Assembly: GCA_963806715.1 (NCBI GenBank)
Contig: CAWEAV010000080.1
Location: 1,501 to 65,500, forward strand
Length of the DNA: 64,000 nt
Reading direction: 5' to 3'
Origin: an uncultured delta proteobacterium
Lineage (GTDB): Bacteria; Desulfobacterota; BSN033; UBA1163
The notes under the pieces were generated by a model. That model did no database searches and had not been told where the DNA came from. It saw only the letters and a program-made list of their open reading frames with translations. A program made the position numbers and the translations under genes. Shown here piece after piece: positions 7,770-52,411 of this stretch. Position 1 is the first letter of the stretch. Each line of letters opens with the position of its first letter.

Positions 7770-7969
7770 AGACCAGAGGGAGAAAAAGTGAAATTTACTG
7801 GTTCAATCACCCCATAATAATTAAGACCTCCCGACCCCTTAAAAGGACCACCTCCTTTCACCCTTGTTTGCGCTTTCAATACATCCTACCGATTGTTGTT
7901 TTTAAAGTCAATTAAAAAAGTTTAAAATTCCCGAGGGGAGAATCGGAGAACCCCTTTGTCCGCTTGTTC

Positions 7970-9628: not shown

Positions 9629-9697
9629 AAATGGGCCTTTTCACAGATGACAAGAGGAACCCTTTAAGGGTTGCCGTAGCCTTTGGTCAGAAAAAGG

Positions 9698-15556: not shown

Positions 15557-15824
15557 TTCACCACCCTTAAACTATTAAAATTAAGATATTATCGCGATAA
15601 ATGTCAAGGAGAAACTTTCACCCAAATCCCGACATAGAAATTAAAGGATGTTTCTCCGGGGAGATTTAAGGAAATTTTTTGGTTAAAAAATTGGGACTTC
15701 TCCAGGAGGACTCCTGAATTCGTGCATTTCAACGAATGCGATTCCCTCTCAACCTTGGATTTCGAAGATTTTGGGCAAACTCCTCCCTTGGCCTGACTCC
15801 CTCTCATCAACGTCTCTTGTTTCA

Positions 15825-17147: not shown

Positions 17148-17180
17148 AACAATTACCTCCTTTTGGTTTTTCGGTTTCAC
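15825..17180 (-). mobile_element. Insertion sequence (minimal extent; the true ends lie somewhere within 15557-15824 and 17181-17268)
   Basis: A single intact transposase gene occupies the gap between the rplM start (15556) and the secF stop (17269). I could not define terminal inverted repeats with confidence. Confidence 0.5.
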
Positions 17181-17268
17181 CTTGCTGGTGATATTCTTAT
17201 ATCACCGAAACCTCCAAATCAAAAGGGGGTTTTTTTATTTCTCAAATTCCTATATCTTTTTTAGGGTT

Positions 17269-21778: not shown

Positions 21779-22135
21779 ATGAAAATAGAAGAGTATAATT
21801 TCCCAGACGATTTATACTACCACAAGGAGCATTTTTGGGCAAGGGTCGATGGAGATGTTGTCACCATTGGAACCACCGATTTTGCCCAAAAATTGGCCGG
21901 GCAGGTCGTGTATATCGAATTGCCCTCTCCCGGAAAGGCAGTGGAACAAGGTAAACCCTGCGGCTCGATGGAATCCGGAAAATGGGTGGGAAGGATCTAC
22001 GCCCCTGTCTCCGGGAAGATTGAGGCGATTAATGGCGAACTGGAAGATACTCCTGAACTGATCAACGAAAGCCCCTACGAAAAGGGCTGGATGTGCAAAA
22101 TCAAGGCCTCCAAACCTCCAGGGACCAGAAACTGA
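21779..22135 (+). CDS. gcvH: Glycine-cleavage H-like lipoyl carrier protein (orphan; no gcvT or gcvP nearby)
   Basis: - It matches the GcvH pattern: HFWARVDGDVVTIGTTDFAQ, the lipoyl-Lys context MESGKW, and YAPVSGKIEAIN...INESPYEKGWM.
- The C-terminus may be disturbed. An alternative frame reads ..ADFIKSEIEG-stop, ending at 22181. Confidence 0.8.
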   Translation: MKIEEYNFPDDLYYHKEHFWARVDGDVVTIGTTDFAQKLAGQVVYIELPSPGKAVEQGKPCGSMESGKWVGRIYAPVSGKIEAINGELEDTPELINESPYEKGWMCKIKASKPPGTRN

Positions 22136-22391
22136 TGAAAGAGAGCCTGCCGATTTCATCAAATCCGAAATCGAAGGGTAAAAAAGGTGAAAGAAGAAAA
22201 TCTTCATTGAAAAGCCAGTCTTTATTTGATTGACAGGGTTGAAAAAGTGTAAAAGTGATAACCGGATCGGATTTGTCACTTGATGAAATGACTTACAGGT
22301 TTTTAAATCGAAATTTTACAAATAAACTTCAGGGTGACGTTAGTTTTTATGATCCTTCAGAATTCATTCTTTCGAATTTTCCGGAGACTCC

Positions 22392-22874
22392 ATGCGTCGA
22401 TTGGTCGATACCTTGTCCTTTGAAGAACTTAAGAAGATCGACCAGGTCATTGCTAAATACAATGGGAAGCACGGATCTCTTATCCCTGCCCTCAAAGAAA
22501 GCCAGGATATCTGTGGTTACCTGCCAAGGCAGGTTCAAAGGCGAATCGCCGAAGGGTTAAACATCTCCCCTTCTCAGATCTACGGAGTCGTCTCCTTTTA
22601 TGCCTTTTTCACGACCATCCCAAGGGGAAAGCACATCATCCGGGTCTGCCTTGGGACGGCCTGCTATGTCAAAGGGAGTAAACAGATCCTGGAAAAACTT
22701 GAACAGGAGTTGGGCCTCAAGGTTGGAGGCATTACGAGGGACCGAAAATTTTCTCTTGAAGCGGTCCGGTGCCTCGGATGCTGCAGCTTAGCGCCGGCCA
22801 TGGTCATCGACAACGACACCCATGCCCTGATGGTACCCTCTGAGGCAGTCCGAATAGTCCGATCATACGAGTAG
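22392..22874 (+). CDS. nuoE: NuoE/HoxE/HndA-like [2Fe-2S] thioredoxin-like subunit of an NADH-dependent module
   Basis: 160 aa with the SLIPALKESQDICGYLP pattern and Cys motifs CLGTAC and CLGCC. Confidence 0.85.
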   Translation: MRRLVDTLSFEELKKIDQVIAKYNGKHGSLIPALKESQDICGYLPRQVQRRIAEGLNISPSQIYGVVSFYAFFTTIPRGKHIIRVCLGTACYVKGSKQILEKLEQELGLKVGGITRDRKFSLEAVRCLGCCSLAPAMVIDNDTHALMVPSEAVRIVRSYE

Positions 22875-22877
22875 CCC

Positions 22878-24766
22878 ATGCAGCTATCAAGAATAGAAGA
22901 TTTAGAAAAGATCAAGGAGCAGATCTTTCAGGACCTTACCCTTCAAAAAGAGGGGATTCGGACGAAGATCAATCTTCACATGGGGACATGCGGGATTGCT
23001 GCAGGGGCCAACAGGCTCCAGGCATTCATCAACAGAGAGATTGAGGAAAAAGGGCTGAAGGATATCAAGATCATCCATTCCGGCTGTGCAGGCCTTTGCA
23101 GCCGTGAACCCATGGTGACTATTGAATCTATCGGGCTCCCGCCCGTGAAATATTGTGACCTTAATGAGGAGAAGATTCAGGAGATTTTTAGCCGGCATGT
23201 TTTGAAGGGAGAGATCGTTGATGCCTATGCCCTTGCGTTCGAAATGGAGGGCGATGCTCCGATGACATCGGCTCCCGGAGAAGATCCCGAAATTCAGGAC
23301 ATCCCATTTTTCAAGCATCAGACTCTCTGGGCCCTTCGAAATAAAGGACTGATCGACGCGGAGGAAATTGATCAGGCTATCTCAAGGAGCGCCTATTTCG
23401 GACTGGCCAGGGTTCTCACCGCATGACCCCTGAGGCTGTCATTGAGGAGGTGAAGATCTCCGGTCTTCGAGGCCGCGGGGGTGCCGGGTTTCCTACAGGC
23501 GCAAAATGGGAGGAGGGAAGACGGTATGCCTCTTTTCCAAAGTACGTCATCTGCAACGGCGATGAAGGAGACCCGGGAGCCTTCATGGACCGTTCTCTTC
23601 TGGAGTCCGATCCCCATGCCGTATTGGAAGGAATGATCATCTGCGGTTATGCCATTGATTCCCATCAGGGATACGTTTATGTCAGGGCGGAATATCCCCT
23701 GGCGATCCACCGGCTCGGCATAGCCATCGAACAGGCCAGAAAGTACGGGCTTCTCGGGAGAGAACATCCTGGGTTCGGGATTCGATTTCGATATCGGGAT
23801 ATATCCTGGAGCCGGAGCTTTCGTCTGCGGAGAATCGACGGCCCTGATGTATTCTCTGGAAGGGAAACGGGGAATGCCCCGGATCAAACCCCCGCGCTCG
23901 ACTGAGGCCGGGTCTCTGGGGGCAGCCCACCGTTCTCAATAATGTCGAGACCTTCGCCAATATCCCGGCCGATTATTCGGAACGGAGGGAAATGGTTTGC
24001 CTCCATAGGGACCAAGGGCTCCAAGGGGACAAAGGTCTTTGCCCTGGCCGGTATGGTCAAGAATGTGGGACTCGTCGAGGTCCCCATGGGAACGACCCTC
24101 CGGACCATTGTGGAGGAGATTGGCGGAGGGGTTCCGGGGGGCCGAAAATTCAAGGCAATCCAGATTGGCGGACCTTCGGGGGCCTGTCTCCCCGCCCCGC
24201 TTCTCGATACCGAGGTCGATTTCGATTCTCTCGATGAGGCGGGAGCCATGATGGGCTCGGGCGGCCTCGTTGTCATGAATGATTCGACCTGCATGGTGGA
24301 TACGGCCCGGTTCTTCACTGATTTCTCTGTAGACGAATCCTGCGGGAAATGCGTCCCTTGCCGTATCGGATTGAAGGTGATGCTCAATATCCTGAATCGA
24401 ATCGCCGCGGGAAAGGGAACGATGGAAGATATCGACCTCCTGGAGCGATTGGGCAAGCATATCAAGGACTCCTCCCATTGCGGTCTTGGAAAGAGCGCTC
24501 CCAATCCCGTCCTCTCCACGATCCGTTATTTCCGGAATGAATACGAAGCCCATATCCAGGAGAGACGATGCCCGGCCCTGGTCTGCCCTGATCTGATCCA
24601 GTTCCGCGTCAATCCGGAAAAATGCAAGATGTGCGGTCTCTGTCAGAAGGCATGCCCGGTGGAGGCCGTCAGCTGGGAGAAGAAGGCACCGGCGGTCATC
24701 GATTCGGAAAAGTGCACGCAGTGCCGGTCCTGTATCCAGGCATGTAAGTTTTGGGCAATCGAATAG
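22878..24766 (+). pseudogene. nuoF: NuoF/HydB/HndC-like NAD(H)- and FMN-binding subunit with an N-terminal HndB-like 2Fe-2S domain and a C-terminal 2x[4Fe-4S] domain; at least four frame interruptions
   Basis: - Motifs recovered across frames: [84 protein letters not shown].
- The frame switches near 23420, 23756-23758 (G-run), 23905 and 23975. Confidence 0.85.
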
Positions 24767-24834
24767 CAATGGAATCGATGCGAAGATCTGGAATCAATTT
24801 TCAAACTATCCCATCATCCCCTTTTTAGACCATT

Positions 24835-27382
24835 ATGAAGAGCCAAACCGAATAAACTGAAGATCGATAGCATCGAGGTCGAGGTTGAACGGGGAAAGAT
24901 GATTCTCGAGGCAGCCGAGGCTGCCGGGGTCAGGATCCCTACCCTCTGCCATGACCGAAGGCTCGTCCCTTTTGGCGCCTGCCGGCTCTGTGTGGTCCAG
25001 CAAAAAGGAAAGAAAGAGCTCCAGCTTGCCTGTTTTACCCCGGCCAGGGATGGGATGGAGATCATCACCCAATCCCCTGAGATCAAGGAATCAAGAAGAC
25101 TCCAGCTCCAGCTCATCCTTCTCAATCACCCCATGATCTGTCCCCGCTGTGAAAGGAAGGGAGAGTGTGCCCTCCAACCCTGGTCTATGAGTATGGGGTG
25201 GAGGAGACCCAATATCCATGGGAAAAGATTTCTCTTCCCGATAGATGACATCTCTTCTCTTCTCCAGAGGGATCCGAACAAATGTATCCTCTGCGGCCGG
25301 TGTGTTCGGATCTGCGACGAGGTTCAGGGGATAGGAGAGCTTTCCTTTACCGAGAGGGGAATAAAATCATCGATCGACACCGATTTTCACCGGCCCCTCG
25401 ATTGCGAATTCTGCGGCCAGTGTCTGGATACCTGTCCTGTGGCTGCAATCACGAGTGACTGTTTTGACTACGCACCGAAGGCATGGGAATTGAAAGAGAC
25501 AACGACGCCCTGCCCTTACTGTGGCTGTGGATGCCTCCTTACAATAGGTTCGAAAGACGGAGAGGTGAAGCGCGTCTTCTCCGATCCATGTCCGGGGCCG
25601 AGTGACGGCAATCTCTGCGTCAAGGGCCGATTTGGATGGGACTTCATCGATCACCCGGACCGGATCAAGACCCCGCTGCTGAGGGTCAAGGGTGAATTGA
25701 GAGAGGCCTCCTGGGACGAAGCGCTCCATTTCATTGCGACAGAACTCGAAAAGTCAAAGACCCAATCGGGTCCGGAGTCGATCGCCGGCATTCGTTTCCA
25801 GCCGATTGACCAACGAAGAATACTATCTCTCCAAAAAACTGTTTAGAGAAGCTATCGGAACAGATCAGATCATGCCTTGAGTGGCGGCAGCGCTTACGAA
25901 GGATTGACAGAGGGATTATCCCAAACATTAGGCATCCCTGCTTCTACCAATTCGATTCATGAACTGAGAAGACGGATTGCATCCTGATCATCGGGGTTGA
26001 CCCGGCAGAAACCCATCCTATCGTGAAGAATGAAATCCATCTCGCCATCCGGAAGAACAGGGCTCAGTTGATCGTGGTCGGGAGCTATGATATCGGCCTC
26101 AGTCGAAATACGCAGATTTCGCCTCTTTCAGCCTCCAGCCATCCTTCTCCTCGGAAAACCCGGAATGGAGGTCCCTCTTCTGAATGGAATCACCCGGACG
26201 ATCCTAAAAGAGGGTCTCGAGAATAAGGGTTTCATCGATGAAAGAACCGAGGGAATTGAAGCCTTGAGGAAGAAGGTTACAGATCTCGGAAACCGAAGTG
26301 ACTGAAGCGCTTTCAGAGACAACGAGAAAGGATCTCGAAAAGGCAGCCAGGGCCTTTGCCCAGGCCAAACACGGCATGATCCTGATCGGAGCAGGAGACT
26401 GGTCGCATCTTCCCCATAAAAGGATTGCCGTTGCTGCTTCGAACCTTGCCCTGATGACAGGGCATCTTGGAAAAGAATCTTCCGGCATCCTCGTCCTCCC
26501 GGAAAAATGTAACAGTCAGGGAGCTATCGATCAGGGGATCCTTTCAAATGGAGGGACCAAGAGTCTTCTTGAAAAAGGTGGAAGAAGGAAGATTAAGGGC
26601 TCTTTACGTTGTAGGTGAGGACCTTCTCGCCCTCTCTTCCCAGCCTGATCGTCTGAGAAAAGCCTTGAGAATCTTCCCCTTCTCGTGGCCCAGGACCTCT
26701 TCATGACAGAGACAGCAAAGATGGCCCATGTCGTTCTTCCTGCCGCCTCTTTTGTCGAGAAAGAAGGAACCTATACCAATTTGGAGCGGAGGGTCCAGAA
26801 GACTCAACCCCCTGCGTCCTCCGGCGCATGGGTCAAAACCGGATTTTGACATCTTCCTTCATCTCCTTCATATGCTTGAATGCCTCTTCCTGGTAGAACA
26901 CCCGGAGGCCATCTTTAAGGAGATTTCCCATCAGAATCCGACATTATCAAGGGATCGAGTATGGAGAGCAGTGGCCAAAAGGGGCTTCTTACCTCTATTC
27001 GAATGGATTCCCGAAGGGGAAAGGCAAAATTGATCCCTGTTGAGGATCGGGATCTTCAATTCTTCTCCAGTGAAAAAGGGGAATACCCTCTTCTTCTGAT
27101 CCAGAGGCCTTCGCTCTTTCAATCAGGTCTTCTCAGCTCAAAGAGTGAGAACCTGGGAATGGTTCAAAGAGAGCCTCTTCTGGAGATCAATCCTGATGAC
27201 GCGGGAAGCCTGGGGATCGAAGATGGAGAGGCGGTCCGGATTTTAAACCCTGCAGGCCGGTCAATGAAGATAAAAGTGAAGGTTTCCAAAAGACCTGCCA
27301 AGGGGTCATGACGGCTCCCTGGCCTTGCCCGTTGATTGAGGAAAGGGGGATTGTATCAGTAAAGATTGAAAAAACGACTTAG
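24835..27382 (+). pseudogene. NuoG / formate-dehydrogenase-alpha-like subunit (N-terminal 2Fe-2S and 4Fe-4S domains plus a molybdopterin-oxidoreductase fold); about ten or more frame interruptions
   Basis: - Readable segments: IPTLCHDRRLVPFGACRLCVV, HPMICPRCERKGECALQ, CILCGRCVRICDE, CEFCGQCLDTCPV, CPYCGCGCLL...GNLCVKGRFGW, SSRLTNEEYYL, LIIGVDPAETHPIV and [31 protein letters not shown].
- The C-terminal barrel segment reads LEINPDDAGSLGIEDGEAVRI.
- The ATG at 24835 is already out of frame with the body. Confidence 0.75.
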
Positions 27383-27397
27383 ACGAAGAAGAATGTC

Positions 27398-27466
27398 ATG
27401 CTGAATTTGGTTCAGCATCTGGCTCTATTTCTTTGAGGAAACCAGACCCTGAAACGAGTTCAGGGT
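27398..27466. repeat. Two related hairpins in the nuoG-like/hdrC spacer
   Basis: ATGCTGAA-TTTGG-TTCAGCAT (27398-27418) and ACCCTGAA-ACGAG-TTCAGGGT (27446-27466). Both share a CTGAA-N5-TTCAG core. Confidence 0.45.
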
Positions 27467-27487
27467 GACAACAGCAGAGAGTATTTC

Positions 27488-27986
27488 ATGATCGATTCTA
27501 AAACCCTTGATCCTGATTTCAGTCTTCTCATTGCCAAGGAACCAGGGGGAGAACACATCAAGCGGTGCTTCTCCTGTGGAACCTGTACTGCGGGCTGCCC
27601 GGTCCGGGAAGTCACAGACCGGTACAATCCGAGGAAAGATCATTCGGATGGCCATCCTGGGGATGAAGAAGGAGGTCCTCTCCAGTCAGTTCATCTGGCT
27701 CTGTTCCTCCTGCTACACCTGTTTTGAACGGTGTCCCCAGGATGTGAGAATCCCTGAACTGATGAATGCCATCAGGAATATTGCGGTGAGAGAAGGCTAT
27801 ATTCCTCCGGCCATGAAGGTGCAACTGGACCTCCTCTCATCCTTTGGCCGACTCCTGGAGATCACCGATTTCGAAAATGACAGGAGAAAGGAACTGAATC
27901 TACCCCTCGTCCAGGGAAAGACGGAAGAGATCAAAAAGATCTTGGAAAAGCTGGGGCTTCATCGTGAAGAAAAGACAGAAAAATAG
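27488..27986 (+). pseudogene. hdrC: Heterodisulfide reductase subunit C-like protein, one frame interruption
   Basis: It has two ferredoxin-type motifs, CFSCGTCTAGCP and CSSCYTCFERCP. The frame switches near 27640 (..RYNPRK / IIRMAILG..). Confidence 0.85.
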
Positions 27987-28860
27987 TCCTTCAGAGGTTC
28001 ATTATACCCTTTTCCTGGGTTGCACGGTCCCTGTCCGGGCTGCCAATTATGAGCTCTCTGCCCGGAAAGTGGCGGAAAGGCTGGATGTCCAGCTCCATGA
28101 CATCCCTGAGTTCGCCTGTTGCGGTTATCCGATCAAATCGGTCAATCACTATGCCTATCTCCTGATGGCTGCCCGCAACCTCGCCCTTGCCGAGGAGAAA
28201 GGATCATCCCCTCTGCACCCTCTGCAGCGCCTGCTGTGGCGCCCTGACCGAGGCCAATCACGAAATCCAGGAGGACGAAAAGCTTCGAAAAAGGATCAAT
28301 GAGGATCTTTCGCGCTGGATCGGGAAGAAGTACAAAGGAGGCGTCCGGGTGACCCACTTCATCCGGGTCCTGAAGGAGGATGTGGGATACAAGAGGATTG
28401 CGGAAGAGATCCAGGTCGATCTTTCGTCCCTTCATCTCGCCCCCCATTACGGTTGCCACTATACCAAACATCGACCATTTATGCGAGGATCGAAGATCCC
28501 GAGAATCCCAAAAGCCTGGATGAACTGATCGAGGTCGAGCGGAGCACAAATCGATCTCTTATGAAAATAAACTTTCGTGCTGCGGCGGTGGGGTGTCTGG
28601 CCATTGATGAGCAGGTGGCCCTCGGAATGGCAAAGAACAAACTGGACCATATTCGGGCCAGCCAGGCCGATGCCATGATCCTCATCTGCCCCTTCTGCGA
28701 CATCATGTACGAATCGAACCAGAAAAAGATCGAGAAGGTGGCTGGGAAAGAATACAAATTGCCCATCCTGTTCTATCCCCAACTCCTGGGACTCGCCATG
28801 GGGATGGAGCCGGATGAACTGGGAATGAAGATGAACCGTGTGAAGCCGCAGAGCTCTTGA
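27964..28860 (+). pseudogene. hdrB: Heterodisulfide reductase subunit B-like protein (two CCG domains), several frame interruptions
   Basis: - EFACCGYP (first CCG) and KLSCCGGGV (second CCG, in a third frame near 28575).
- The C-terminus ADAMILICPFCDIMYESNQ is readable.
- The GTG start overlaps the end of hdrC. Confidence 0.85.
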
Positions 28861-28887
28861 AGAAGATCAACAGGAGGCCGAGCTAAG

Positions 28888-31153
28888 ATGAGCCAGTCAG
28901 GACATCCCCCTCTCGAGATCCGGTCGGTGCCGTGCTGGTCGTCGGCGGAGGGATTGGAGGCATCCAGACCTCCCTCGACCTCGCGGAATCGCGGTTTCAA
29001 GGTCTACCTCCTGGAGAAGAATATCAGCATTGGCGGAACCATGGCCCAGCTCGACAAGACCTTCCCCACCAATGACTGCTCCATGTGCATCATGTCTCCC
29101 AAGCTGGTCGATGCGGGCACGGCACCGGAACATCGAGATCCTGACCAATGCGAAAGTGGAGAAGGTTGAAGGAGAAGCCTGGCCACTTCAAGGTTCTCGT
29201 CCACAAAAAGGCCCGCTCCGTGACGATTGAAGACTGTAAGGCCTGCGGCGACTGCGTCAAAGTCTGTCCCGTGAAGATTCCCAATGACTATGAACAGGGT
29301 CTTGTGACCCGGGCAGCCATCTACCAGCTCTTTGCCCAGGCGATGCCGAGCGCCTACGGGATTGAGAAGCGGGGCATTCCTCCCTGCCGTGCCGCCTGCC
29401 CTCTCCATGTCAATGCCCAGGGATACGTTGCCCTGATCTCTGTGGGCAAATTCAAGGAGGCCTTCGAACTCGTCAGAGAGAAACTGCCCTTCCCGGGGAT
29501 CCTTGCCTATGCCTGCTCTCACCCCTGCGAATGGGAATGCAAACGGATCGAAGAGGATCGGCCAATTCCCATCTGCCATCTCAAGAGGTTCCTCGTTGAT
29601 CATGTCGAAGAACCTGAGTTTGAATTCACAACACCCCAGGAGAATGGAAAGAAGGTGGCCATCATCGGCTCAGGTCCTGCCGGACTCATGGCAGCCCATG
29701 ATCTGAGAAGGATGGGCTATACGTCACCCTCTTCGAAGCCAGAGACAAGATGGGAGGCCTCTTGACGGATGGCTTTCCCTCTTATCGACTTACCCAAAAA
29801 GGTGGTCGAGAAGGATCTCTCCATCATCGAAAAGATGGGGATCGAAGTCCATCTCAAAACGCGGGTCGGGAAGGTCTCTGTGGGAGCTCTCTTGCAAGGT
29901 TTCGATGCCATCTTTATTGCCACGGCGTTTCCGGAGACAGACCGATGGTCAAGGCCTTTAAGGGACTGAAGGGAACCCGATGGGGAACCATTCTTGCGGA
30001 CCCCATCACCCTTGAAACAAGCCTTAAGGGAGTCTTTGCAGGAGGCGATACGGTTACAGGTCCTGGAACGATTGTCGAATCCATGGCCCATGGAAGAAAG
30101 GCCGCGATCTCCATCGATCGTTACCTTCGCGGAGAAGATTTGACACAGGACAGGGAATCCGAAGGGAGCCAGAAATCGCCTCTGGGGACCAAGCTTCCCT
30201 ATTCCCAACGGAAGGAGCGAGAGACACCTCCGGATATGGTCAAGCCTCTCGATTCAGGCCTCACGGCCGAGGAGGCCATCGAAGAGGCAAAGCGCTGTCT
30301 CCAGTGCGGAGGATGCTCCGAATGCATGGAGTGTGTCAAGGCCTGTGAGGCGAAGGCCATCAACCACCAGATGAAAGATGAGAAAGTGGAGATCGAGGTG
30401 GGTTCCATCATCCTCTCCCCAGGGTTTGATGAATTCTCCCCTTCCATGAAGACGGAGTATGGTTATGGCCGATTTCCCAATGTGGTCTCAAGCATTGAAT
30501 TTGAGCGATTCCTTTCTGCCTCCGGTCCTTTCAAGGGACAGATTCTGAGACCCTCGGATGACAAACACCCCAAAAAGGTGGCCTGGATCCAATGCGTCGG
30601 GTCAAGGGATCCCCATATTGGGAAGGGGTATTGTTCATCTGTCTGCTGTATGTACGCGACGAAAGAGGCGGTCATCGCAAAAGAACATGCCCGGGAGATG
30701 GAAGCCACCATCTTCTTCATGGACATGAGGGCTTACGGAAAGGACTTCGACAAGTATATCGAAAGGGCGAAGAAGGAGTATGGGGTCCGTTACATCCGCT
30801 CGCGCATCTCTCATCTCAAGGAAGACCCGGACAGCCATAACCTTTTCATTCATTACGAGACCGAAGAAGGAGAGATGGTCTCTGAAGAGTTCGACATGGT
30901 CGTCCTTTCTGTCGGCCTCGAGCCTGTCCGGGATCACCTTGAGATATCGAAGATCTTCGGGATCGATCTTAACCACTACGGATTTGCCCAGACATCGACA
31001 TTTGCCCCGCTTCAGACCTCAAGACCAGGCGTCTTTGTGAGTGGTGTCTTCTCCGGACCTAAAGATGTCCCCGAAACGGTAGCGCAGGCCTCCGCAGCCG
31101 CCGCAGAAGCCTCCTCCCTTCTCGCCCCTCTCGAGAGGGACCCTGGTGACTGA
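28888..31153 (+). pseudogene. hdrA: HdrA-like flavoprotein carrying an inserted GltD/NfnB-like domain; multiple frame interruptions
   Basis: - HdrA signatures: [54 protein letters not shown] and WIQCVGSRD...YCSSVCCMYATK.
- They are interrupted by a GltD-like block: PPCRAACPLHVNAQGY...CSHPCEWECKR, KKVAIIGSGPAGLMAAHDL and GVFAGGDTVTGPGTIVESMAHGRKAA.
- The first frame switch is in C-run 28906-28910. Confidence 0.8.
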
Positions 31154-32893
31154 AAAGGAGTACGTCCCGGAGAAGAATGTGAATTACGAGAGGCCGCGAA
31201 TAGGGGCCTTCATCTGCCACTGCGGAATCAATATCGCGGGCGTTGTGGACGTGCCTTCTGTCGTGGAATATGCCAGGACCCTTCCCCATGTGGTTTATGT
31301 GGATGGAAATCTCTACACCTGTTCACAGGATACCCAGGAGGTCATCAAAAAGGCGATTGAGGAGCATCAATTGAATCGGATCGTTGTGGCCTCATGCACC
31401 CCAAGAACCCATGAACCTCTCTTCCAGGATACGATCCGGGAGGCTGGCCTTAACCGCTATCTCTTCGAGATGACCAACATCCGGGATCAGTGTTCCTGGG
31501 TCCATATGCATCAACCCAGAGAAGCCACGGAGAAGGCAAAAGACCTGGTGAGAATGGCCATTGCCAAGGCAGCCCTCCTCGAACCCCTTCCCACCCAGAT
31601 GATCGAGATGAACCAGAAGGCCCTGGTCATCGGAGGTGGCCTTGCAGGAATGACGGCTGCCCTTGAAAATTGCCCAGGCAGGCTTTGAAGTCTTTTTAGT
31701 TGAAAGAGAGGAAGAACTGGGGGGAAAAGCCAGAAGAATCCACTACACTCTCGATGGCATGGATGTCCAATCCCATCTCAAAGACTCATCGGTGAGGTTG
31801 AGAGACATCCCAGCATCCATATCTTCAGGGGAACAACAATCGAAAAGGTGGATGGGTTTGTCGGAAATTTCAAGACAGGGATCAAAACCAAGGGTGAAAT
31901 AAGAACCATCGATCACGGCGTAGTCATTGTTGCCACGGGGGCTGAAGAATATCGCCCGGCAGAATTTCTCTATGGCCAGGATAGTCGGGTCACCACTCAG
32001 ATGGACCTCGAAAAGGAGATGGTCCTCCATCCGGAGTCATTCAAGGCCTCTAAGAATATCGTGATGATCCAGTGTGTTGGGTCAAGAAACGAGGAGAGAC
32101 CTTACTGCAGCCGGATCTGCTGCTCCGAGGCGATTAAGAACGCCCTGATGCTCAAGCAGATCAATCCCGGAGAACAATGTCTATATCCTCTATCGTGACA
32201 TTCGGACCTATGGCTTCAAAGAGGACTATTACGAGAAAGCCAGGGATGCGGGTGTCCTCTTCATCCGTTATGACCAGGAGAAGGAACCTCGCCTTGAAAA
32301 AGGAGAAGAAGGTCTCCAGGTCATCGTCCATGAACCTGATCCTCCATGACGACCTTCTCATCCGGGCCGATCGCGTGGTCCTGAGCCCTGGAATCATTGC
32401 TCCCCATGAAAATGAGGGCCTTTCGAAGATGCTCAAGGTGCCTTTCAATGCGGATGGTTTCTTCCTCGAGGCCCACATGAAACTGAGACCGGTCGATTTC
32501 GCCACTGAAGGGATCTTCCTGGCAGGTCTGGCCCACAGTCCCAAATCGATCGATGAGACGCTCTCTCAGGCCAATGCGGCCGTCTCCCGGGCTCTGACGC
32601 TTCTTGACCAGGACCCATCTCGAAACGATCGGAACCATCTCCGAGATCGACGAGAAAAAGTGTGTCGGCTGCGGCCTCTGTGCAGACCTCTGTCCGTATA
32701 AGGCGATTGAGATCGTCTGGAAGAGAACGGTCGTGGGCGAAAAACTGGTGGCCCAGGTCAACAAGGCCCTCTGCAAGGGATGCGGTGTCTGCACAGCCTC
32801 TTGCCGGTCAGGCTCTGTGGACCTGAAAGGATTTAGCAACGGAAGAGATCGTGGCCCAGATCACAGAACTCTGTGCTTCATGATAAGATCCGC
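31146..32893 (+). pseudogene. hdrA: Second, canonical-length HdrA-like flavoprotein; multiple frame interruptions. It may be fused to the preceding gene.
   Basis: - It has the N-terminal Cys domain IGAFICHCGINIAG and ALVIGGGLAGMTAAL.
- It also has IQCVGSRNEERPYCSRICCSEAIK and C-terminal ferredoxin motifs CVGCGLCADLCP and CKGCGVCTASC.
- The GTG at 31146 overlaps the upstream stop (GTGACTGA). Confidence 0.8.
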
Positions 32894-32941
32894 AATGACA
32901 AATCCCGACTCCCAATGGTGCAGATGGTGAAGAGTCAAGTG

Positions 32942-32995
32942 GTCATTTGGTTACTCAATGATCCGAATTGATCATTGGGATTTGACGATTTTGTT
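32942..32995. repeat. AT-rich TTTGG-type intergenic spacer repeat (copy A)
   Basis: It contains GTCATTTGGTTA (32943-32954), identical to 35610-35621. It also has TGGTTACT, shared with 48006-48013. Confidence 0.45.
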
Positions 32996-33023
32996 CTGAG
33001 TTTCAATTCGAAGGCATTGTAAA

Positions 33024-33491
33024 ATGGAATCTAAATGGGAACCGAAAATTTTGGCTTTTCTCTGTAACTGGTGCTCTTACGCAGGAGCAGACCTTGCAGG
33101 GACTTCGAGGATCCAGTATCCGCCGAACATCCGGGTGATCCGGGTCCCCTGCTCCGGAAGGATCAATCCCCTCTTCATCCTCAAGGCCTTAAGGAGCGGG
33201 ATCGATGGCGTTCTGGTCTCCGGTTGTCATCCCGGGGATTGCCACTACCTCAGTGGAAACTACGTTGGCAGAAGAAAGTCAGCGACCCTGAAGCGTTTTC
33301 TTGAATACCTGGGCATTGAGGAAGGCCGGGTCCAGTTCTCCTGGGTCTCTGCTGCAGAAGGGATCAAGTTCTCCCAGGTGATCGATGAGGTCACCCAGGA
33401 CATAAAGAAATTGGGCCCCCAAAAGCAATTCATTGAAGAAAAGGATTCAAAGGGTCCAAGTGGTCAAGGGTTCAGAGTTAAAAGTATCTGA
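33024..33491 (+). CDS. mvhD: MvhD/FlxD-like [2Fe-2S] hydrogenase delta-subunit family protein
   Basis: KILAFLCNWCSYAGADLAG...IRVPCSGRINP...LVSGCHPGDCHY is the MvhD/FlpD signature. The 155-aa ORF is uninterrupted. Confidence 0.85.
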   Translation: MESKWEPKILAFLCNWCSYAGADLAGTSRIQYPPNIRVIRVPCSGRINPLFILKALRSGIDGVLVSGCHPGDCHYLSGNYVGRRKSATLKRFLEYLGIEEGRVQFSWVSAAEGIKFSQVIDEVTQDIKKLGPQKQFIEEKDSKGPSGQGFRVKSI

Positions 33492-33548
33492 ATCTAAAGG
33501 CCTTGAACTCCTGAACCTGGAATCCTTGAACCCTTTCAGGAATTGAAT

Positions 33549-34495
33549 ATGGTTCAAAAAGAATTAGAGAAGAAGCCAAAAAGCTCCTCGCAAATAAAGA
33601 AGTCGATGTCATCGTTGGTTTTGGCGAAGGAACTCTTCCCCTCCGGGCCACGCCTATCTTTGTCCGGAACCCCGAGGAGGTCGACCGCCTCATCTGGAAC
33701 TCCTTCTGTGAAAACAATCTGGCCACTTATCTTCACAAGCTGGAGCGATTTAAGGTGGGGCTTGTCGTCAAGGGGTGTGATGCCCGCTCCGTCATTGCCC
33801 TTTCTCTCGAAGAAAGGTTCAGAAATAATCCCGTCTATCTCATTGGTGTTCCCTGCCAGAGAATGGTGGACCGGAGGAAGGTAAAAAAGGCCGTTAAGAA
33901 AGAGATTCTGAAGGCTGACTGAGGAAGGGGATCAGATCATCGTTTCAGGAGACGGCTTTGAGATCGCTCTGAAGAGAGAAGATTTTCTTATATCCTTCCT
34001 GTCAGGTCTGTACCCATCGAAACCCGGCACAAGCCAATGTACTCGTTGCCGATCCCGTTGAGGAGAAAGCCCTCGTCGAGAATCATCCGGAGTGGAGGCC
34101 TTTGAAAAGATGAGCCCCCAGGAGCGTTGGGAGTTTTTTGAGAAAGAGGCGAGCCGCTGCATCCGATGCTATGCCTGCAGGGAAGCCTGCCCCATGTGCT
34201 ACTGTAAAGAGTGCTTCGTTGACAGCTCCAGGCCCAAATGGATCGAGAAGGGTCTCGAACCCGAAGGACCTCCAATTCTATCATATCGTCAGAGCCTACC
34301 ATCAGACAGGAAGGTGTTCGGCCTGTGGGGCGTGTGAACGGGCCTGCCCCATGGAGATCAAGCTCAATTATATGACCCAGAAACTGAACCAGGATGTCAG
34401 AGGACCTTTACGGGTTTGAGACCGGAGTGGATCGGGATACCCCTCCTCCCCTTTCGACCTTTGAGACAGAGGATAAACAGGAATTCATCAAATGA
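33549..34495 (+). pseudogene. FlxC-like iron-sulfur protein, several frame interruptions
   Basis: - Readable segments: VDVIVGFGEGTLPLRATPIFV...VGLVVKGCDARS...LIGVPCQ, CIRCYACREACPMCYC and CSACGACERACP.
- The position between mvhD and the flxB-like gene matches the flx cluster order.
- The stop overlaps the next ATG (AAATGA at 34490-34495). Confidence 0.5.
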
Positions 34496-35537
34496 AGTTG
34501 AGACTCGATAAAAAAGATTTCTTGCCTTTCCTTCAAAGCCTGATCGATCATTACGATCTCTTTGCCCCTGTCGAACTGGCGGAAGGGGTTTCGGCCTATA
34601 GAAGGATCGATCGGCCTGAAGAAGTCAATTTCAAGGTCCTGAATCCGCAGAAACCCCTGAAGGAGGTCTTCTTCCCCCAGACCGAGGTCATGTTCTCCTA
34701 TCAGAAGGCTGGGAAAAAGAATCAGGTGATCCCCCTGAAGGAGATCGAAAAGAGAACGGGTGATTCTCGGAGCGAGGCCGTGCGACATCGAGGCCATCTC
34801 CCTCATTGAGGGTGTCTATTGCGGCAAAGAATATACGGACATCTATTTTCAGAATAAGAGAAAGGCGACCACGATCATTGGGATGGCCTGTCGACACTCC
34901 CCTATCCACCTGTTTCTGTTCCTCAACCGGGGGAGGTCCCTTTATCCGAAAGGGCTCTGATATCTTCCTCATCGATCTAGGCGAGGCCTATCTCGTAGAG
35001 CTGGCTCACGGAAAATGGCAAACGGCTCCAGAGGAATCAATATTTTAAGGAGGCTTCTTCAAGGGATATAGCGCTGGCTGAAGAGGCAGAGAAGAAGGCC
35101 TCGAAGAAGATGGAATCCTCGGCCGCTCATAGCCTTCCAATCGAAGGGATCGAGAAGAGACTGGACGTCCTGGTGGAGTCTCCCTTCTGGGACAGGATCC
35201 ATGAGAAATGCATCGGGTGCAGCACCTGCACTTTTCTCTGCCCCACTTGCCACTGTTTCGATATCGCGGATGAAGCCTCTGGAGATAAGGGACAACGTGT
35301 TCGGAATTGGGACTCATGCCTTTCCACCCTCTATTCCCTGGAGACATCCGGACATAATCCCCGGCCAACCGGCAAGGGAACGGACCCGGCAGAGGATCAT
35401 GCATAAATTGAATTATTTCCCGAAGACTCTTCGGAAAGATCGCCTGTGTGGGTTGCGGACGGTGCATTCTTTATTGTCCTGTCAATTTCGACATCCGCCA
35501 GACGATCGAAGAGATCCAAAATGCGAAAGAATCATAA
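34492..35537 (+). pseudogene. FlxB-like / sulfhydrogenase-beta / AsrA-like iron-sulfur protein, several frame interruptions
   Basis: Readable segments: ILGARPCDIEAISL, GMAC...CFCSSTGGGP, EKCIGCSTCTFLCPTCHCFD and CVGCGRCILYCPVN. Confidence 0.6.
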
Positions 35538-35603
35538 CCAATTTCCAAGCATCACTAACTAAATAAGCTCCAATGAACAATATTCAAACTTGGTAACCTC
35601 TCG

Positions 35604-35662
35604 GTCATTGTCATTTGGTTATTGAAAGTTATTTGGGATATGGAATTTGGTCATTGGAATTT
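35604..35662. repeat. AT-rich TTTGG-type intergenic spacer repeat (copy B)
   Basis: GTCATTTGGTTA (35610-35621) equals 32943-32954. TTTGGTCATTG (35646-35656) equals the reverse complement of 47728-47738. Confidence 0.45.
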
Positions 35663-35668
35663 ACTCTT

Positions 35669-36502
35669 ATGAAAAACCCTTATCTTCCTATTCCCATGGT
35701 GGTTAAAAAGGCTTCCATGTCGAAACAATGGACCGGATGCTCCGGACCCTTGAATTGAGTTTTGTTAAGGAAGAAGATGAGAAGGCCTTCCACTATACCC
35801 CGGGCCAATTCTGCGAGCTCTCCGTCCTTGGAAAAGGAGAGGCTCCCTTCGGGATCGCTTCTTCGCCAACGGAAAAGGGCTCTTTAAAATTCACCATCAA
35901 TAAGGCTGGAGTTGTTACCACTGCCATTCATCAGCTTGAAGAGGGTGAGGAGATCGGGATTCGAGGCCCTCTGGGCAATTCCTATCCCCTCCATCTCTTT
36001 GAAGGGAAAAATGTGTTGGTGATCGGCGGCGGATTCGCCTTTACGACCCTCCGATCTCTCATTGTCTATCTCTCCCATCCGGATCACCGAAACAGATTCA
36101 AAGAGATCACGGTCATCTACGGAGCGAGGATGCCGGGCCTTCTCCTCTATAAAGAAGAACTCGCGGAGTGGCAGAAACGGGGCGATATCAAAATCGTGGT
36201 AACCGTGGACCAGGGAGATAAGGACTGGGACGGGAAAGGTCGGGCTTGTCCCGAATGTCCTGGAGGAGGTCGCTCCCACATCCGAAAACACCTATGCCGT
36301 AATCTGCGGGCCTCCCATCATGATCAAGTTCACCTTTCCCAAGCTGATGGCCCTTCGATTCCCCAATGAGCGGATCTACACCTCCCTCGAAAAGAGGATG
36401 AAGTGCGGCATCGGGAAATGTGGCAGATGCAACATTGGACACCTCTACGTTTGCAAGGATGGCCCTGTATTCAGCTATGAACAACTTGGAAAAATTGCCT
36501 AA
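35669..36502 (+). pseudogene. FlxA-like FAD/NAD(P)H-binding oxidoreductase (PyrK/AsrB/sulfhydrogenase-gamma family), two frame interruptions
   Basis: It has the ferredoxin-reductase-type pattern YTPGQFCEL...APFGIASSP, VLVIGGGFAFTTLRS and the C-terminal 2Fe-2S motif CGIGKCGRCNIG. The frame switches near 35715 and 36240. Confidence 0.7.
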
Positions 36503-36622
36503 GGATTATTAGGACTTTCAACATTGGAATATTGGAATAGTGGAACAACAATCCAACCTTCCAGTATGCCAACATTCCATCATCAAGGTGAGGCTGTAAC
36601 TTAAAAGAAGGGAGAAGAGATA

Positions 36623-39202
36623 ATGGATTACATCAAAGCATTAATCGAAATCGTGGGCGAAAAGAATGTGAAGACCGATCAGATCGAGCGGCTCTGCCAT
36701 TCCCGGGACATGTCTGTCCATGAAGGGATTCCGGATGCCATCGTTTTCGCCAAGACCACGGAGGAGGTCTCAAAAATTCTCAAACTGGCCAATGAGAATG
36801 ACATCAAGGTCATTCCTCGCGGTTCAGGGACAAGCACAACCGGAGCCGTCCTCGCCTGTTTTGGGGGTATCATCCTCGATGTGAGCCGGATGAATAAGAT
36901 CAAAGAGATTCAAAAGAAGGATGGTTACGCGGTGGTTGAACCCGGTGTCATCTGCGCAACCCTTAATGCTGCTCTTGCTCCCACCCACTTCTTCCCACCT
37001 GACCCTGGCAGTGCAACCATCGCCTCTATCGGCGGGATGGTCTCAACGAATGCCAGCGGAAACCGTGCCATCAAATACGGCGCAACCAAAGACTACATAT
37101 GGGGGCTGGAAGTCGTTCTGGCTGATGGAAGGGTGATGAGGACAGGTTCAACAGCGCCCAAGACCTCTTCGGGATACGATCTCGCTCACCTCTTCTGCCG
37201 GGCAGAAGGGACCCTTGGAGTCATCACGGAGATTACGGTAAAAATCCTCCCCATGCCCGAATATATTGCCTATGCCCAGTTGAGGTTCCCTTCGATTGAG
37301 GACGCAGGCAAGGCTGCCGAAGGGATCCTCGGCTCCGGCATTCCCCTCTCCTCCTGTGAGATTCTGGACCGGGCCTGCATCGACGTGGTCAACAAGGCCA
37401 TGGGCCTCAATGTTCCGGACAATGTGGAGTGTCTTCTTTTCATCGAGATCGATGGAAACAAGCAGGCCGTGAAGGAGAACATCGAGAAGATCGAAAAGAT
37501 CTCAAAAGAGTGCAATGGTCTCGGCAATGAATGGGATGACGATCCTTCCCGGCGCCTGAAGATGTGGGCAGGCCGCCAGGGTCTTGTTCCCTCTCTTTCC
37601 AAGATCAAGAGGGGAGCAAAGCTGATTCCTTTTGTCGAGGATTTCGGAGTTTCTATTTCCAAGATTCCAGAGATGATACGGGAACTCCAGAAACTCCGTG
37701 ATAAACACAACTTCCCCATTCCTATCTTCGGTCATATCGGTGACGGGAACCTCCATGCCGCCCTGGTCATCGACGGCCGAAAGAAGGAGGAGTGGGATGT
37801 GGTGAAAAAGATCGCCCAGGATTTTGTCGATCTCACCATGAAATTCAAGGGAACCCTGACCGCAGAACATGGCATCGGTGTGGCCAAGGCCCCTTACATC
37901 CGCGAAGAGCTCGGGTTGAGTCTTGATGTGATGAAGTCGATCAAAAAATCCCTCGACCCAAAGAACATCTTGAACCCCGGTAAAATGGGTCTTGACGATA
38001 GCGTAAAAGATATCTATGACTTCTTCACCTATAAAGAATTCATTGAGACACCCGAAAAGATCAAGCGCTTCGATACGGCAGTGGACAACGAGATCTTTGC
38101 CTGCATCAATTGCGGCTTTTGCCGCGCGGGGTGCACGGTATATGCGCGGACCGGGTTGGAATCGGAGAACGCCAGGGGAAGGGTGATTCAGGCTTACTAT
38201 ATGATGAAGGGTGTACTGGAACCCTCCAAGGAGGTGGCGGACAAATTCTACCTCTGCACCACCTGTCTCAACTGCAAGTCCACCTGCCCTGCCGGGGTCA
38301 TGGTCTCTGAGATTGTGGAAGCGGGCCGGCGTAAATTGGTCGAGGCAGGATATTGTCCGGAAATTCATAAAACACTGATCGAGAATCTGAAGGCCACCGG
38401 AAATCCCTTTGGTGAATCGAAGGAGAAGAGGACAGATGTCTTCCCATCCTCATTTAAGCCCAAGAAGGGACCGGTCGATACCCTCCTCTTCACAGGGTGC
38501 GTCTCTTCCTATCAGGACATTAACATCGTTCCCAGCATCATGAAGATCATGGACACGGCTGGAGCCGATTACACAGCCCTGGGAAAAGACGAGAATTGCT
38601 GCGGATATATCTCTTACCTGGTCGGAACAAAAGAATTCGTGGACATAGCTGAAAAGAATAAGGAGGCCTTCGCAAAGGTTCAACCGAAACAGATCGTAAC
38701 CACCTGTGCAGGCTGTTATAAAACATTCAAGGAACTCTATCCCAAACATGTCCCCCTTAATGGCGTCAAAATAGTCCATGCCATCGAATACATCGATCAA
38801 CTCGTCGAAAGTGGAAAAGTGAAATTCAAAGATGGAACGCCCATGAAGGTGGCCTACCATGATCCCTGCGACTTGGGTCGTCATCTCAATATCTTTGAAC
38901 CCCCCAGAAATCTCCTCAAGAAGGTCCCTGGAGTGACCCTGATTGAATTCAAGAACAACCGGCTCCTGGCAAAATGCTGCGGAGGTGGAGGCGGCCTGAA
39001 GGCATTCAACAATGAACTCTCAGGCGAGATTGCCTATCACCGGGCCCTGGAGGCCCTCGATGTCGGAGCGGATACGATTGTCTCGGCCTGCCCGGCCTGT
39101 AAATCGAATTTGAACCTGGCTGCTGCAAAGATTCGAAAGGAAAAGAAAGGCCGCTTAAGAGTGATGGACCTTTCAGAATTGGTAGCCGAATCACTCGCCT
39201 AA
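36623..39202 (+). CDS. FAD-linked oxidase (GlcD/D-lactate dehydrogenase-like) fused to a 2x[4Fe-4S] plus double-CCG (GlcF/HdrD-like) domain
   Basis: - Uninterrupted 859-aa ORF.
- N-terminal FAD_binding_4-like region (IPRGSGTSTTGA) and a GTLTAEHGIGVAK C-terminal oxidase motif.
- These are followed by CINCGFCRAGC, CTTCLNCKSTCP, ENCCGY and AKCCGGGGG. Confidence 0.85.
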   Translation: MDYIKALIEIVGEKNVKTDQIERLCHSRDMSVHEGIPDAIVFAKTTEEVSKILKLANENDIKVIPRGSGTSTTGAVLACFGGIILDVSRMNKIKEIQKKDGYAVVEPGVICATLNAALAPTHFFPPDPGSATIASIGGMVSTNASGNRAIKYGATKDYIWGLEVVLADGRVMRTGSTAPKTSSGYDLAHLFCRAEGTLGVITEITVKILPMPEYIAYAQLRFPSIEDAGKAAEGILGSGIPLSSCEILDRACIDVVNKAMGLNVPDNVECLLFIEIDGNKQAVKENIEKIEKISKECNGLGNEWDDDPSRRLKMWAGRQGLVPSLSKIKRGAKLIPFVEDFGVSISKIPEMIRELQKLRDKHNFPIPIFGHIGDGNLHAALVIDGRKKEEWDVVKKIAQDFVDLTMKFKGTLTAEHGIGVAKAPYIREELGLSLDVMKSIKKSLDPKNILNPGKMGLDDSVKDIYDFFTYKEFIETPEKIKRFDTAVDNEIFACINCGFCRAGCTVYARTGLESENARGRVIQAYYMMKGVLEPSKEVADKFYLCTTCLNCKSTCPAGVMVSEIVEAGRRKLVEAGYCPEIHKTLIENLKATGNPFGESKEKRTDVFPSSFKPKKGPVDTLLFTGCVSSYQDINIVPSIMKIMDTAGADYTALGKDENCCGYISYLVGTKEFVDIAEKNKEAFAKVQPKQIVTTCAGCYKTFKELYPKHVPLNGVKIVHAIEYIDQLVESGKVKFKDGTPMKVAYHDPCDLGRHLNIFEPPRNLLKKVPGVTLIEFKNNRLLAKCCGGGGGLKAFNNELSGEIAYHRALEALDVGADTIVSACPACKSNLNLAAAKIRKEKKGRLRVMDLSELVAESLA

Positions 39203-52399: not shown

Positions 52400-52411
52400 C
52401 CGCTCCCTCCG

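Follow-up and report, generated by a model that had tools for sequence, protein, structure and literature searches.

Closest described systems

HdrABC-type complexes are widespread in anaerobic bacteria, but to our knowledge little has been established about what feeds electrons into them or which disulfide they act on. The locus considered here is a string of genes at 21.8-39.2 kb of a 64-kb stretch of contig CAWEAV010000080.1 (hereafter the window, i.e. the whole stretch that was analysed), in which every recognisable gene lies on the + strand, in the order gcvH, nuoE, nuoF, nuoG-like, hdrC, hdrB, hdrA, mvhD, flxC, flxB, flxA and glcD-hdrD. This order and strandedness, read in the original prediction from the DNA alone, were borne out by orthologue comparison and by Pfam, with which the domain content was checked in intact orthologues as well as in the frame-corrected window sequences. 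Judging from its sequence, the string is a genuine, probably co-transcribed redox gene cluster of an uncultured Syntrophaceae-type (Thermodesulfobacteriota) bacterium. The explanation that we favour, with some reserve but as the likely one, is that a syntroph-type Hdr/Flox core has, in a small lineage, gained a HydBC/Bfu-type module before hdrC and had the insert of its HdrA swapped, with the parts forming one coupled electron path.

The core of the string resembles the Hdr/Flox system of Desulfovibrio and syntrophs, i.e. the FlxABCD-HdrABC NADH dehydrogenase/heterodisulfide reductase (Ramos et al. 2015, as cited in PMC5947623 and PMC5017805), for which DsrC is the proposed substrate in sulfate reducers. 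The gene set and order hdrC-hdrB-hdrA-flxD(mvhD)-flxC-flxB-flxA on one strand are the same, as they are in more than 20 relatives (tblastn and Pfam). FlxA carries FAD_binding_6, NAD_binding_1 and DHODB_Fe-S_bind, HdrB carries two CCG domains, FlxB and FlxC are Fe-S proteins, and the corrected window proteins show the corresponding motifs. NADH-dependent reduction of ferredoxin and of a disulfide (DsrC), as ascribed to Hdr/Flox, would be predicted for the window complex. The window differs from Hdr/Flox in the fusion of its HdrA into a dimer that contains an NfnB/GltD-like insert, in the NuoEFG-type module upstream, and in the GcvH and GlcD-HdrD that flank the core.

A large HdrA-containing protein with a pyridine-nucleotide-oxidoreductase domain, HdrL, is known from Desulfobacterium autotrophicum and Syntrophobacter fumaroxidans (PMC2702500, PMC5947623), where it is encoded beside hdrABC and mvhD and has one or two NAD(P)H-binding domains (PMC5947623). 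Two relatives of the window locus (L016 and L008; such L-numbers denote related loci from other assemblies) have this NAD(P)H-binding domain in full, whereas the proteins of the window, L030, L027 and L190 keep the Fe-S and FAD parts of the insert and lack the NAD(P)H-binding Rossmann subdomain.

The class II benzoyl-CoA reductase (BCRII) of Geobacter metallireducens, Bam[(BC)2DEFGHI]2, has been studied by cryo-electron microscopy (bioRxiv 10.64898/2026.04.10.717634). In the path described there, electrons pass from BamGH (HydBC-type, confurcating NADH and reduced ferredoxin) via the Fe-S protein BamI and BamF (MvhD) to BamE, an HdrA fusion dimer whose first FAD alone bifurcates, and from there to BamD (HdrBC-like) on one side and to a low-potential output on the other (bioRxiv 10.64898/2026.04.10.717634). 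When matched to this description, the window holds domain-level equivalents of BamD, E, F, G, H and I, and likewise two bifurcation-type modules in series. However, no tungsten BamB/BamC module and no AOR-family gene were found among the window open reading frames (ORFs) that were scanned, and none lies inside the 17-kb string; HdrB and HdrC are separate proteins, HdrA has the extra NfnB-like insert, FlxABC and GlcD-HdrD are added, and the NuoG-like protein keeps a degenerate molybdopterin domain, whereas the likely BamI (9MQX_A) is only 247 amino acids long. In the Bfu-family transhydrogenases StnABC and NfnABC, a GltD-like domain that binds NADP(H) is fused to a NuoG-like subunit (PDB 8OH5/8OH9, 9N5U; PMC10482914). 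The pairing of a HydBC-type flavin module with a GltD/NfnB-like Fe-S/FAD domain is shared with the window, where this domain is instead nested in HdrA and, in the NuoEFG-linked variant, has no NAD(P)H site.

Neither the combination of Hdr/Flox with a NuoEFG-type module nor the insert swap was found in the literature searched, in line with the earlier suggestion that the combined layout is undescribed. Every component, however, has been described (Hdr/Flox, HdrL, HydBC/Bfu), and the novelty that had been claimed is reduced further by BCRII, whose structure already shows such a NuoEFG/HydBC-type module coupled via an MvhD adaptor to an HdrA fusion dimer. The locus is thus best seen as an uncommon version of electron-bifurcating machinery that is already known, and not as a system of a new kind, and it would extend module stacking, recently shown for BCRII, to the syntroph Hdr/Flox system.

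Distribution of the gene string among relatives

A search with the 859-amino-acid GlcD-HdrD protein returned 29 related loci in Syntrophaceae/Thermodesulfobacteriota metagenome-assembled genomes (MAGs), at 53-97% amino acid identity. Three architectures share the gcvH / glcD-hdrD pair. In Type A, glcD-hdrD is divergent from hdrE-like, hdrD and gcvH, which share a strand, and there is no Hdr-Flx block (e.g. L009 7232-9735 on the - strand, also L012, L014, L023, L024 and L026); the neighbours of gcvH are here an HdrD of 394 amino acids (Fer4_8 and two CCG domains) and an HdrE/DsrM-like membrane protein (Nitrate_red_gam). Type B has the order gcvH-hdrC-hdrB-hdrA(~1485 amino acids)-mvhD-flxCBA-glcD/hdrD and was found at 20 loci (L191-L210) by an HdrB-seeded scan. 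The window type, with nuoE-nuoF-nuoG directly upstream of hdrC, is present only in the window, L030 (Illumina), L027 and L190. Among Syntrophaceae MAGs, the hdrCB-hdrA-mvhD-flxCBA-glcD/hdrD part is common; the survey of co-occurrence with corrected frames, as had been proposed, thus gives NuoEFG together with Hdr-Flx in 4 of 24 related Hdr-Flx loci, i.e. uncommonly.

The same kind of module is also found in a paralogous setting. At least 12 other Syntrophaceae-type genomes carry nuoE-(hndB)-nuoF-nuoG followed by etfB-etfA-acad-hdrAt(761 amino acids)-hdrA2(660 amino acids), and the genomes with Type B loci are among them. A genome scan for this nuoEFG-etf-acad-hdrA cluster, seeded with the acyl-CoA dehydrogenase (ACAD), had no MAG of the window lineage among the matches listed, and L115 was listed. 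In a further, unrelated case, seen by tblastn in a Chloroflexota MAG, NuoEF(G) genes are interspersed with genes for hdrA and mvhD (L260 5061-15511: hdrC-hdrB-(GlcD/HdrD-like)-hdrA-nuoE-hndB-nuoF-short nuoG-hdrA-mvhD).

A rival explanation is that the assembler joined separate loci or strains. Such a chimera would find some support in the gcvH-nuoE junction, which has no counterpart in other assemblies, and in the extent of the error-rich stretch (22.10-36.49 kb, see below), which matches the segment missing in Type A and suggests a lower-coverage or strain-variable path. However, nuoF-nuoG-hdrC-hdrB-hdrA is contiguous in L030 (Illumina) and L190, with the nuoG-hdrC junction present in L027 as well, hdrA...flxA-glcD/hdrD is contiguous in L027 and L029, and gcvH, by its frameshifted 3' end, shares the error-rich path with nuoE. 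An assembly chimera had been named beforehand as a refutation; at nuoG-hdrC and flxA-glcD, where the junctions are independently replicated, the string is not chimeric, and we regard an assembly chimera as highly unlikely.

Mosaic HdrA and its co-variation with NuoEFG

The fused HdrA-HdrA protein of the window (HdrL type, 28888..32883, + strand, about 1330 amino acids, at least 13 frameshifts) had been read as hdrA plus a second, overlapping hdrA. This does not hold, as the gene is a single ORF in L029, L016, L008 and L190; the apparent boundary at 31.15 kb is a +1 indel inside the gene and the "second hdrA" is its C-terminal half. The first HdrA unit contains the GltD/NfnB-like insert (amino acids ~165-460, nt ~29.4-30.3 kb). 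In Type B HdrA this insert is complete and includes the NAD(P)H Rossmann subdomain (VVVGGGNAAIDAAR...), whereas the window, L030, L027 and L190 are without it: relative to L016 and L008 there is a gap of 160 amino acids that corresponds exactly to the GGGNxAxDxAR Rossmann subdomain, and no match to the NADPH subdomain was obtained in the window HdrA. The ETF/NuoEFG-linked HdrAt is likewise without the ~160-amino-acid NAD(P)H subdomain.

A sliding-window comparison further showed that the window HdrA is a mosaic. Over amino acids ~165-460 it is 60-90% identical to HdrAt (L041, L035) and 35-65% to Type B HdrA, whereas the remaining protein is 75-98% identical to Type B HdrA (i.e. the Flx-linked HdrAL) and 20-60% to HdrAt/HdrA2. 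The HdrA of L190 has the same mosaic pattern. In a search of solved structures, the best non-Hdr matches of the insert were StnC and NfnA of HydBC-type ("Bfu") transhydrogenases. It therefore appears that in the window-type lineage the insert was replaced by that of a paralogous HdrA version without NAD(P)H site, which normally lies beside NuoEFG, ETF and acyl-CoA dehydrogenase.

The absence of the NAD(P)H subdomain follows the presence of NuoEFG. It is missing from all four NuoEFG-linked HdrAL proteins and from all 12 ETF/NuoEFG-linked hdrAt genes, whereas the full insert is present in all 20 Type B loci, which have no NuoEFG. The single locus of a further kind, L115 (5742-13817: hdrD-like, etfB, etfA, acad, hdrA of 443 amino acids and hdrA2), has neither NuoEFG nor the insert (1/1), its HdrA having the canonical ferredoxin loop in place of the GltD-like insert, and is an insert-less, NuoEFG-less state of the ETF-linked cluster. 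NuoEFG presence thus tracks the NADPH-less insert in both paralogous systems, which suggests that NuoEFG supplies the electron input to HdrA. The locus and its relatives amount to a natural swap experiment, in which gain of NuoEFG/HydBC goes with loss of the HdrA NAD(P)H subdomain in two paralogous systems, and the pattern predicts which parts contact each other.

The L190 genome carries two NuoEFG sets, one per system (the ETF-linked set being L036), and its Hdr-linked NuoG shares 91% identity with the ETF-linked NuoG encoded in that genome but only 67-68% with the window NuoG. Such similarity points to a second, independent acquisition or to intragenomic gene conversion. The HdrA insert is equidistant in the comparison, so that of one or two acquisitions in the L190 and window lineages, NuoG favours two (or conversion) and the insert favours neither.

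NuoEFG-type module

The module consists of three genes on the + strand. The nuoE/hydC-like gene (22392..22874) is an intact ORF for a [2Fe-2S] thioredoxin-like subunit of 160 amino acids, with 64.6% identity to the NuoE of L041 (Pfam 2Fe-2S_thioredx) and matches to the NCBIfam NuoE/HoxE families. The nuoF/hydB-like gene for the FMN-NADH subunit (22878..24766) has four frameshifts (23421, 23765, 23910 and 23971); corrected, it encodes a Trx-like 2Fe-2S domain at the N-terminus and a 2x[4Fe-4S] domain at the C-terminus (Pfam Complex1_51K, NADH_4Fe-4S, SLBB and two Fer4). The nuoG-like gene (24835..27382) has 14 frameshifts and encodes an Fe-S subunit of about 846 amino acids with a degenerate molybdopterin domain (Pfam Fer2_4, NADH-G_4Fe-4S_3, Fer4_Nqo3, Molybdop_Fe4S4, Molybdopterin and Molydop_binding).

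The domain features of a HydBC/Bfu-type module are present according to Pfam, i.e. a NuoF with Trx-like [2Fe-2S] domain, FMN/NADH core and 2x[4Fe-4S], together with a NuoE-like subunit. The full-length structure matches of NuoF (solved-structure search with an orthologue) are the bifurcating HydB, StnB and NfnB, with E values of 1e-198 to 1e-251. The early description of this NuoF as HydB/NfnB type, with an HndB-like 2Fe-2S domain and a 2x4Fe-4S tail, agrees with both lines of evidence. NuoE, NuoF and the NuoG-like protein are, as far as domains and matches tell, an NADH-ferredoxin flavin module of the HydBC/Bfu type, for which bifurcation or confurcation is predicted. In many relatives a separate small HndB-like [2Fe-2S] gene lies between nuoE and nuoF, which is absent from the window. 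The Trx-like N-terminus of the window NuoF (22878-23426) is 59% identical to the separate HndB of L041 (7280-7663) versus 36% to the N-terminus of the L041 NuoF (7872-9761), which suggests a fusion or deletion.

The NuoG-like protein had also been labelled FdhA-like, and with a catalytic subunit of this kind the cluster would be a bacterial Fdh-Hdr complex driven by formate, like that of methanogens. Its top sequence matches are indeed NAD-dependent FdsA proteins (E 1e-124), and there is a match, below cut-off, to an NCBIfam Fdh-alpha family. However, Cys386-His387 of the Rhodobacter capsulatus FdsA align with Ala-Ser in L030 and with Ala-Tyr in the window protein, by which both the Mo-ligand Cys/Sec and the adjacent His are replaced, a Sec codon is absent, and a full-length alignment is obtained with HydA of NiFe-HydABCSL (7T2R_A), which is NuoG-like and non-catalytic. 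With the catalytic Cys/Sec-His gone, a function as formate dehydrogenase was rejected while the NuoG-like assignment stands, and a formate-driven Hdr is hardly credible.

Proposed electron path

Following these results, a path can be proposed that is modelled on the BamGHI-BamF-BamE-BamD plan of BCRII. NuoEF would bind NADH and reduced ferredoxin at or near FMN, from where electrons would pass over the Fe-S chain of the NuoG-like protein and the Fe-S/FAD insert to MvhD and the bifurcating FAD of HdrA. HdrA would then split the electrons between HdrBC, for the reduction of a disulfide carrier, and a low-potential branch via its ferredoxin domain and FlxABC, although the path is possibly reversed. 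In this way electrons may enter (or leave) HdrA through the NuoEFG-like module, which would stand in for the lost NAD(P)H site. The substrate of HdrBC would be a disulfide of a protein or cofactor, and GlcD-HdrD would oxidise a 2-hydroxy acid and pass the electrons to this same thiol/disulfide carrier. The physical association, path, direction and substrates proposed here derive from the observed gene content, synteny, mosaic HdrA and co-variation. Two NAD(P)H entry modules (the HydB-type NuoF and FlxA) do flank one Hdr core, with GlcD-HdrD as a further CCG protein, just as initially proposed, and a multi-input bifurcating assembly, suggested by gene content, is plausible and strengthened by the co-variation of the HdrA insert with NuoEFG.

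Part of the evidence is also compatible with neighbours that are not coupled, in which case the NuoEFG-like genes would be a separate transcription unit for another enzyme, e.g. ETF/acyl-CoA dehydrogenase/HdrA, and would have been juxtaposed with hdrC by rearrangement. Orthologous nuoEFG genes do lie beside etfBA-acad-hdrAt-hdrA2 in at least 12 related genomes, the adjacency to hdrC is confined to four assemblies, and in the window a structured 110-nt spacer with weak promoter-like hits precedes hdrC. This spacer (27380..27490, + strand) forms a long hairpin (minimum free energy -35.6 kcal/mol, z = -3.35) from which a U-tract is absent; L030 has a longer and different spacer here, and L190 has none. 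Against mere juxtaposition stands the co-variation of the insert in both paralogous systems, as well as the overlap of the nuoG stop (TGA) with the hdrC start as ATGA in L190. Moreover, the second NuoEFG set beside the ETF cluster of the L190 genome (L036) implies that the Hdr-linked copy is extra and dedicated. Strong terminators between the modules, named beforehand as a possible refutation, were likewise not found: the scan gave no terminator-like sites on the + strand in the intergenic spacers of the window, although the counts for promoters and terminators were at or below shuffle expectation, so that little can be read from these scans. Uncoupled neighbours are, on balance, rather improbable.

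Several points nevertheless weigh against the coupled electron path favoured here. All evidence comes from MAGs, and it is from their gene content that we infer the physical coupling. With FlxA there is already a NAD(P)H site, and a need for NuoEFG is thus not evident. A single origin may be shared by the four NuoEFG-linked loci, by which the co-variation would represent perhaps one or two independent observations. The gcvH-nuoE junction is seen only in the window and starts exactly at the error-rich stretch, and the 110-nt nuoG-hdrC spacer has, besides its stable hairpin, two promoter-like hits (at chance level) before hdrC, so that nuoG and hdrC may be transcribed separately in the window.

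Frameshifts in the block

Read as ORFs, the block as originally presented is not readable: mechanical ORF calling returned mere fragments over ~22.9-36.5 kb, with the flanking genes and the 859-amino-acid gene intact, and tblastn with intact orthologues showed repeated frame switching in the window. Frameshifts were placed by frameshift-aware protein-to-DNA alignment with the relatives' intact proteins as guide, which gave 51 from nuoF to flxA (38 of +1, 2 of +2 and 11 of -1). Besides those in nuoF (4), the nuoG-like gene (14) and hdrA (13), there is one in hdrC (27488..27986, + strand, 2x[4Fe-4S]; at 27635, with a corrected amino acid identity to L030 of 92%) and there are six in hdrB (27964..28886, +; 88% to L030, two CCG domains in the orthologue by Pfam). 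Further downstream, mvhD/flxD, the [2Fe-2S] adaptor (33024..33491, +; Pfam FlpD in the orthologue), is intact with 0 frameshifts and 97% identity to L029. The Fe-S protein gene flxC (33549..34495, +; Pfam Fer4 families in the orthologue) has at least five, flxB (34492..35537, +; Fer4_22, sulfhydrogenase-beta/AsrA-like by Pfam and NCBIfam) five, and flxA (35669..36502, +; FAD/NAD(P)H-binding, [2Fe-2S], sulfhydrogenase-gamma/AsrB-like by Pfam and NCBIfam) three. To these come at least two in the final 25 codons of gcvH and, probably, one near the start of each of hdrA and flxC.

With the frames corrected, the tight junctions that had been noted at nuoE/nuoF (3 nt), hdrC/hdrB (overlapping) and flxC/flxB (ATGA) remain, whereas the hdrA/hdrA overlap disappears with the indel at 31.15 kb; the spacers at 27.4, 32.9, 35.6 and 36.5 kb are real and measure ~110-140 nt.

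The density in 22.10-36.49 kb is about one frameshift per 260 nt, which is about 20-fold that on the remaining contig, and there are none in the next 2.6 kb (glcD-hdrD). A contrast this sharp could mean that the 14-kb block is a decaying relic, i.e. a pseudogene string inactivated by real frameshifts in this strain, the more so as the block is missing from about a third of the relatives (Type A) and hence dispensable. Decay is, however, difficult to reconcile with the complete absence of internal stops in about 4,400 corrected codons. Amino acid identity to the intact Illumina MAG SMAG_U16415 (L030/L029/L022) is 79-97% versus a nucleotide identity of 77-87%, a signature of purifying selection. 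Bacterial pseudogenes have a deletion bias, whereas 78% of the indels are insertions, and in nucleotide alignments to L029 and L030 the window differs likewise by insertions that are mostly of a single base. Splits also affect housekeeping genes in other parts of the contig: pstB, phoU, mutS and secD (window 2288-3203, 3128-3863, 10567-13225 on the - strand and 18204-19797 on the - strand) each appear as a pair of ORFs that overlap or abut and whose matches cover consecutive portions of a single Pfam family, i.e. sporadic frameshifts occur outside the block as well. Finally, the closest relative, the long-read MAG L027, is fragmented throughout, glcD-hdrD included. In the Illumina-based relatives L008, L016, L029 and L030 the corresponding genes are long intact ORFs. 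Because of the missing stops, the signature of selection, the insertion excess, the other split genes and the fragmented L027, the indels look like consensus errors of long-read assembly, not decay, and we consider a relic very unlikely.

The boundaries of the error-rich stretch coincide with the segment that Type A relatives are without, and the concentration of errors would be compatible with a path of lower coverage that varies between strains; it may be due to low coverage, to a mixture of strains or to failed polishing. Homopolymer-type nanopore errors are no obvious explanation, as most insertions lie outside homopolymer runs (although at ~80% identity the inserted base cannot be fixed), and selenocysteine as the cause of in-frame TGA codons is ruled out by the 0 internal stops after frame correction. 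For annotation, the block is an example of how 14 kb of a long-read MAG can be nearly unreadable between clean flanks, where gene calls would be missed or marked as pseudogenes.

GcvH and GlcD-HdrD

A lipoate-binding protein of the GcvH type is obligatorily encoded beside Hdr-like CCG proteins in sHdr-LbpA sulfur oxidation (PMC6067878). In the window, the gene for a lipoyl-carrier H protein that retains the lipoyl-Lys (ESGKW) likewise belongs to a string with CCG-domain Hdr proteins; it occupies 21779..22181 on the + strand, where the uncorrected ORF stops at 22135 and the true 3' end, at ~22181, lies beyond at least two frameshifts at 22.10-22.17 kb (3' end compared with L016 and L194). The differences are that this protein scores as a canonical GcvH (Pfam GCV_H 4.5e-40, above the NCBIfam GcvH cut-offs), that the taxa are anaerobic syntroph-type bacteria, and that no genes for sulfur oxidation, a dedicated lipoate ligase or LipS were seen among the window ORFs scanned. 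For a GcvH-Hdr/GlcD-HdrD partnership in anaerobes, the literature search gave only the work on sHdr-LbpA of sulfur oxidisers.

In more than 30 loci gcvH adjoins hdrC/B or hdrD-hdrE, and glcD-hdrD. In the Desulfarculaceae loci L025 and L028, with the order hdrA-mvhD-hdrC-hdrB-gcvH-glcD/hdrD, GcvH is again beside CCG-domain proteins, as in all architectures observed. It is a tentative idea, and on present evidence a somewhat doubtful one, that the NADPH-less HdrA insert is a docking or wiring adaptor for HydBC/NuoEFG modules and that, at the same time, GcvH is the thiol/disulfide carrier of bacterial Hdr. If the former were true, one HdrA site would have three interchangeable input states (no insert, a self-contained NAD(P)H insert, and an adaptor insert with NuoEFG), which would amount to a plug-and-play rule by which bifurcation modules are stacked outside benzoyl-CoA reductase as well. 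If the latter were true, syntrophs without CoM-S-S-CoB would have their carrier, and 2-hydroxy-acid oxidation by GlcD-HdrD would be linked to the reduction of NAD+/ferredoxin or of quinone. As a constant neighbour, GcvH is in any case a concrete and testable carrier candidate.

The GlcD-HdrD fusion itself (36623..39202, + strand, intact, 859 amino acids) combines an FAD-linked 2-hydroxy-acid dehydrogenase with 2x[4Fe-4S] and two CCG domains (Pfam FAD_binding_4, FAD-oxidase_C, Fer4_8 and two CCG), and an exact-sequence look-up of the protein returned no record. In L003, L015, L017, L018 and L020 a segment of 5-9 kb lies between flxA or gcvH and glcD-hdrD, with, among its contents, a molybdopterin-type gene that is only distantly similar to NuoG (20-24%); the site adjacent to glcD-hdrD seems insertion-prone.

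Other features of the window

Rfam and tRNA scans of the window gave no matches. At 51158-57028, on the - strand, genes for a multihaem cytochrome c (413 amino acids), a molybdopterin-type protein (708 amino acids), NrfD and a Fer4_11 protein correspond to a Qrc/Psr-like membrane redox complex, and these are followed by a hybrid histidine kinase/LuxR response regulator at 57405-59561. An insertion sequence element is present at 15593-17302, with a DDE_Tnp_1_4 transposase ORF at 15825-17180 on the - strand; at this site, between the genes flanking secF, the sequence of L007, L009, L023 and L026 is uninterrupted.

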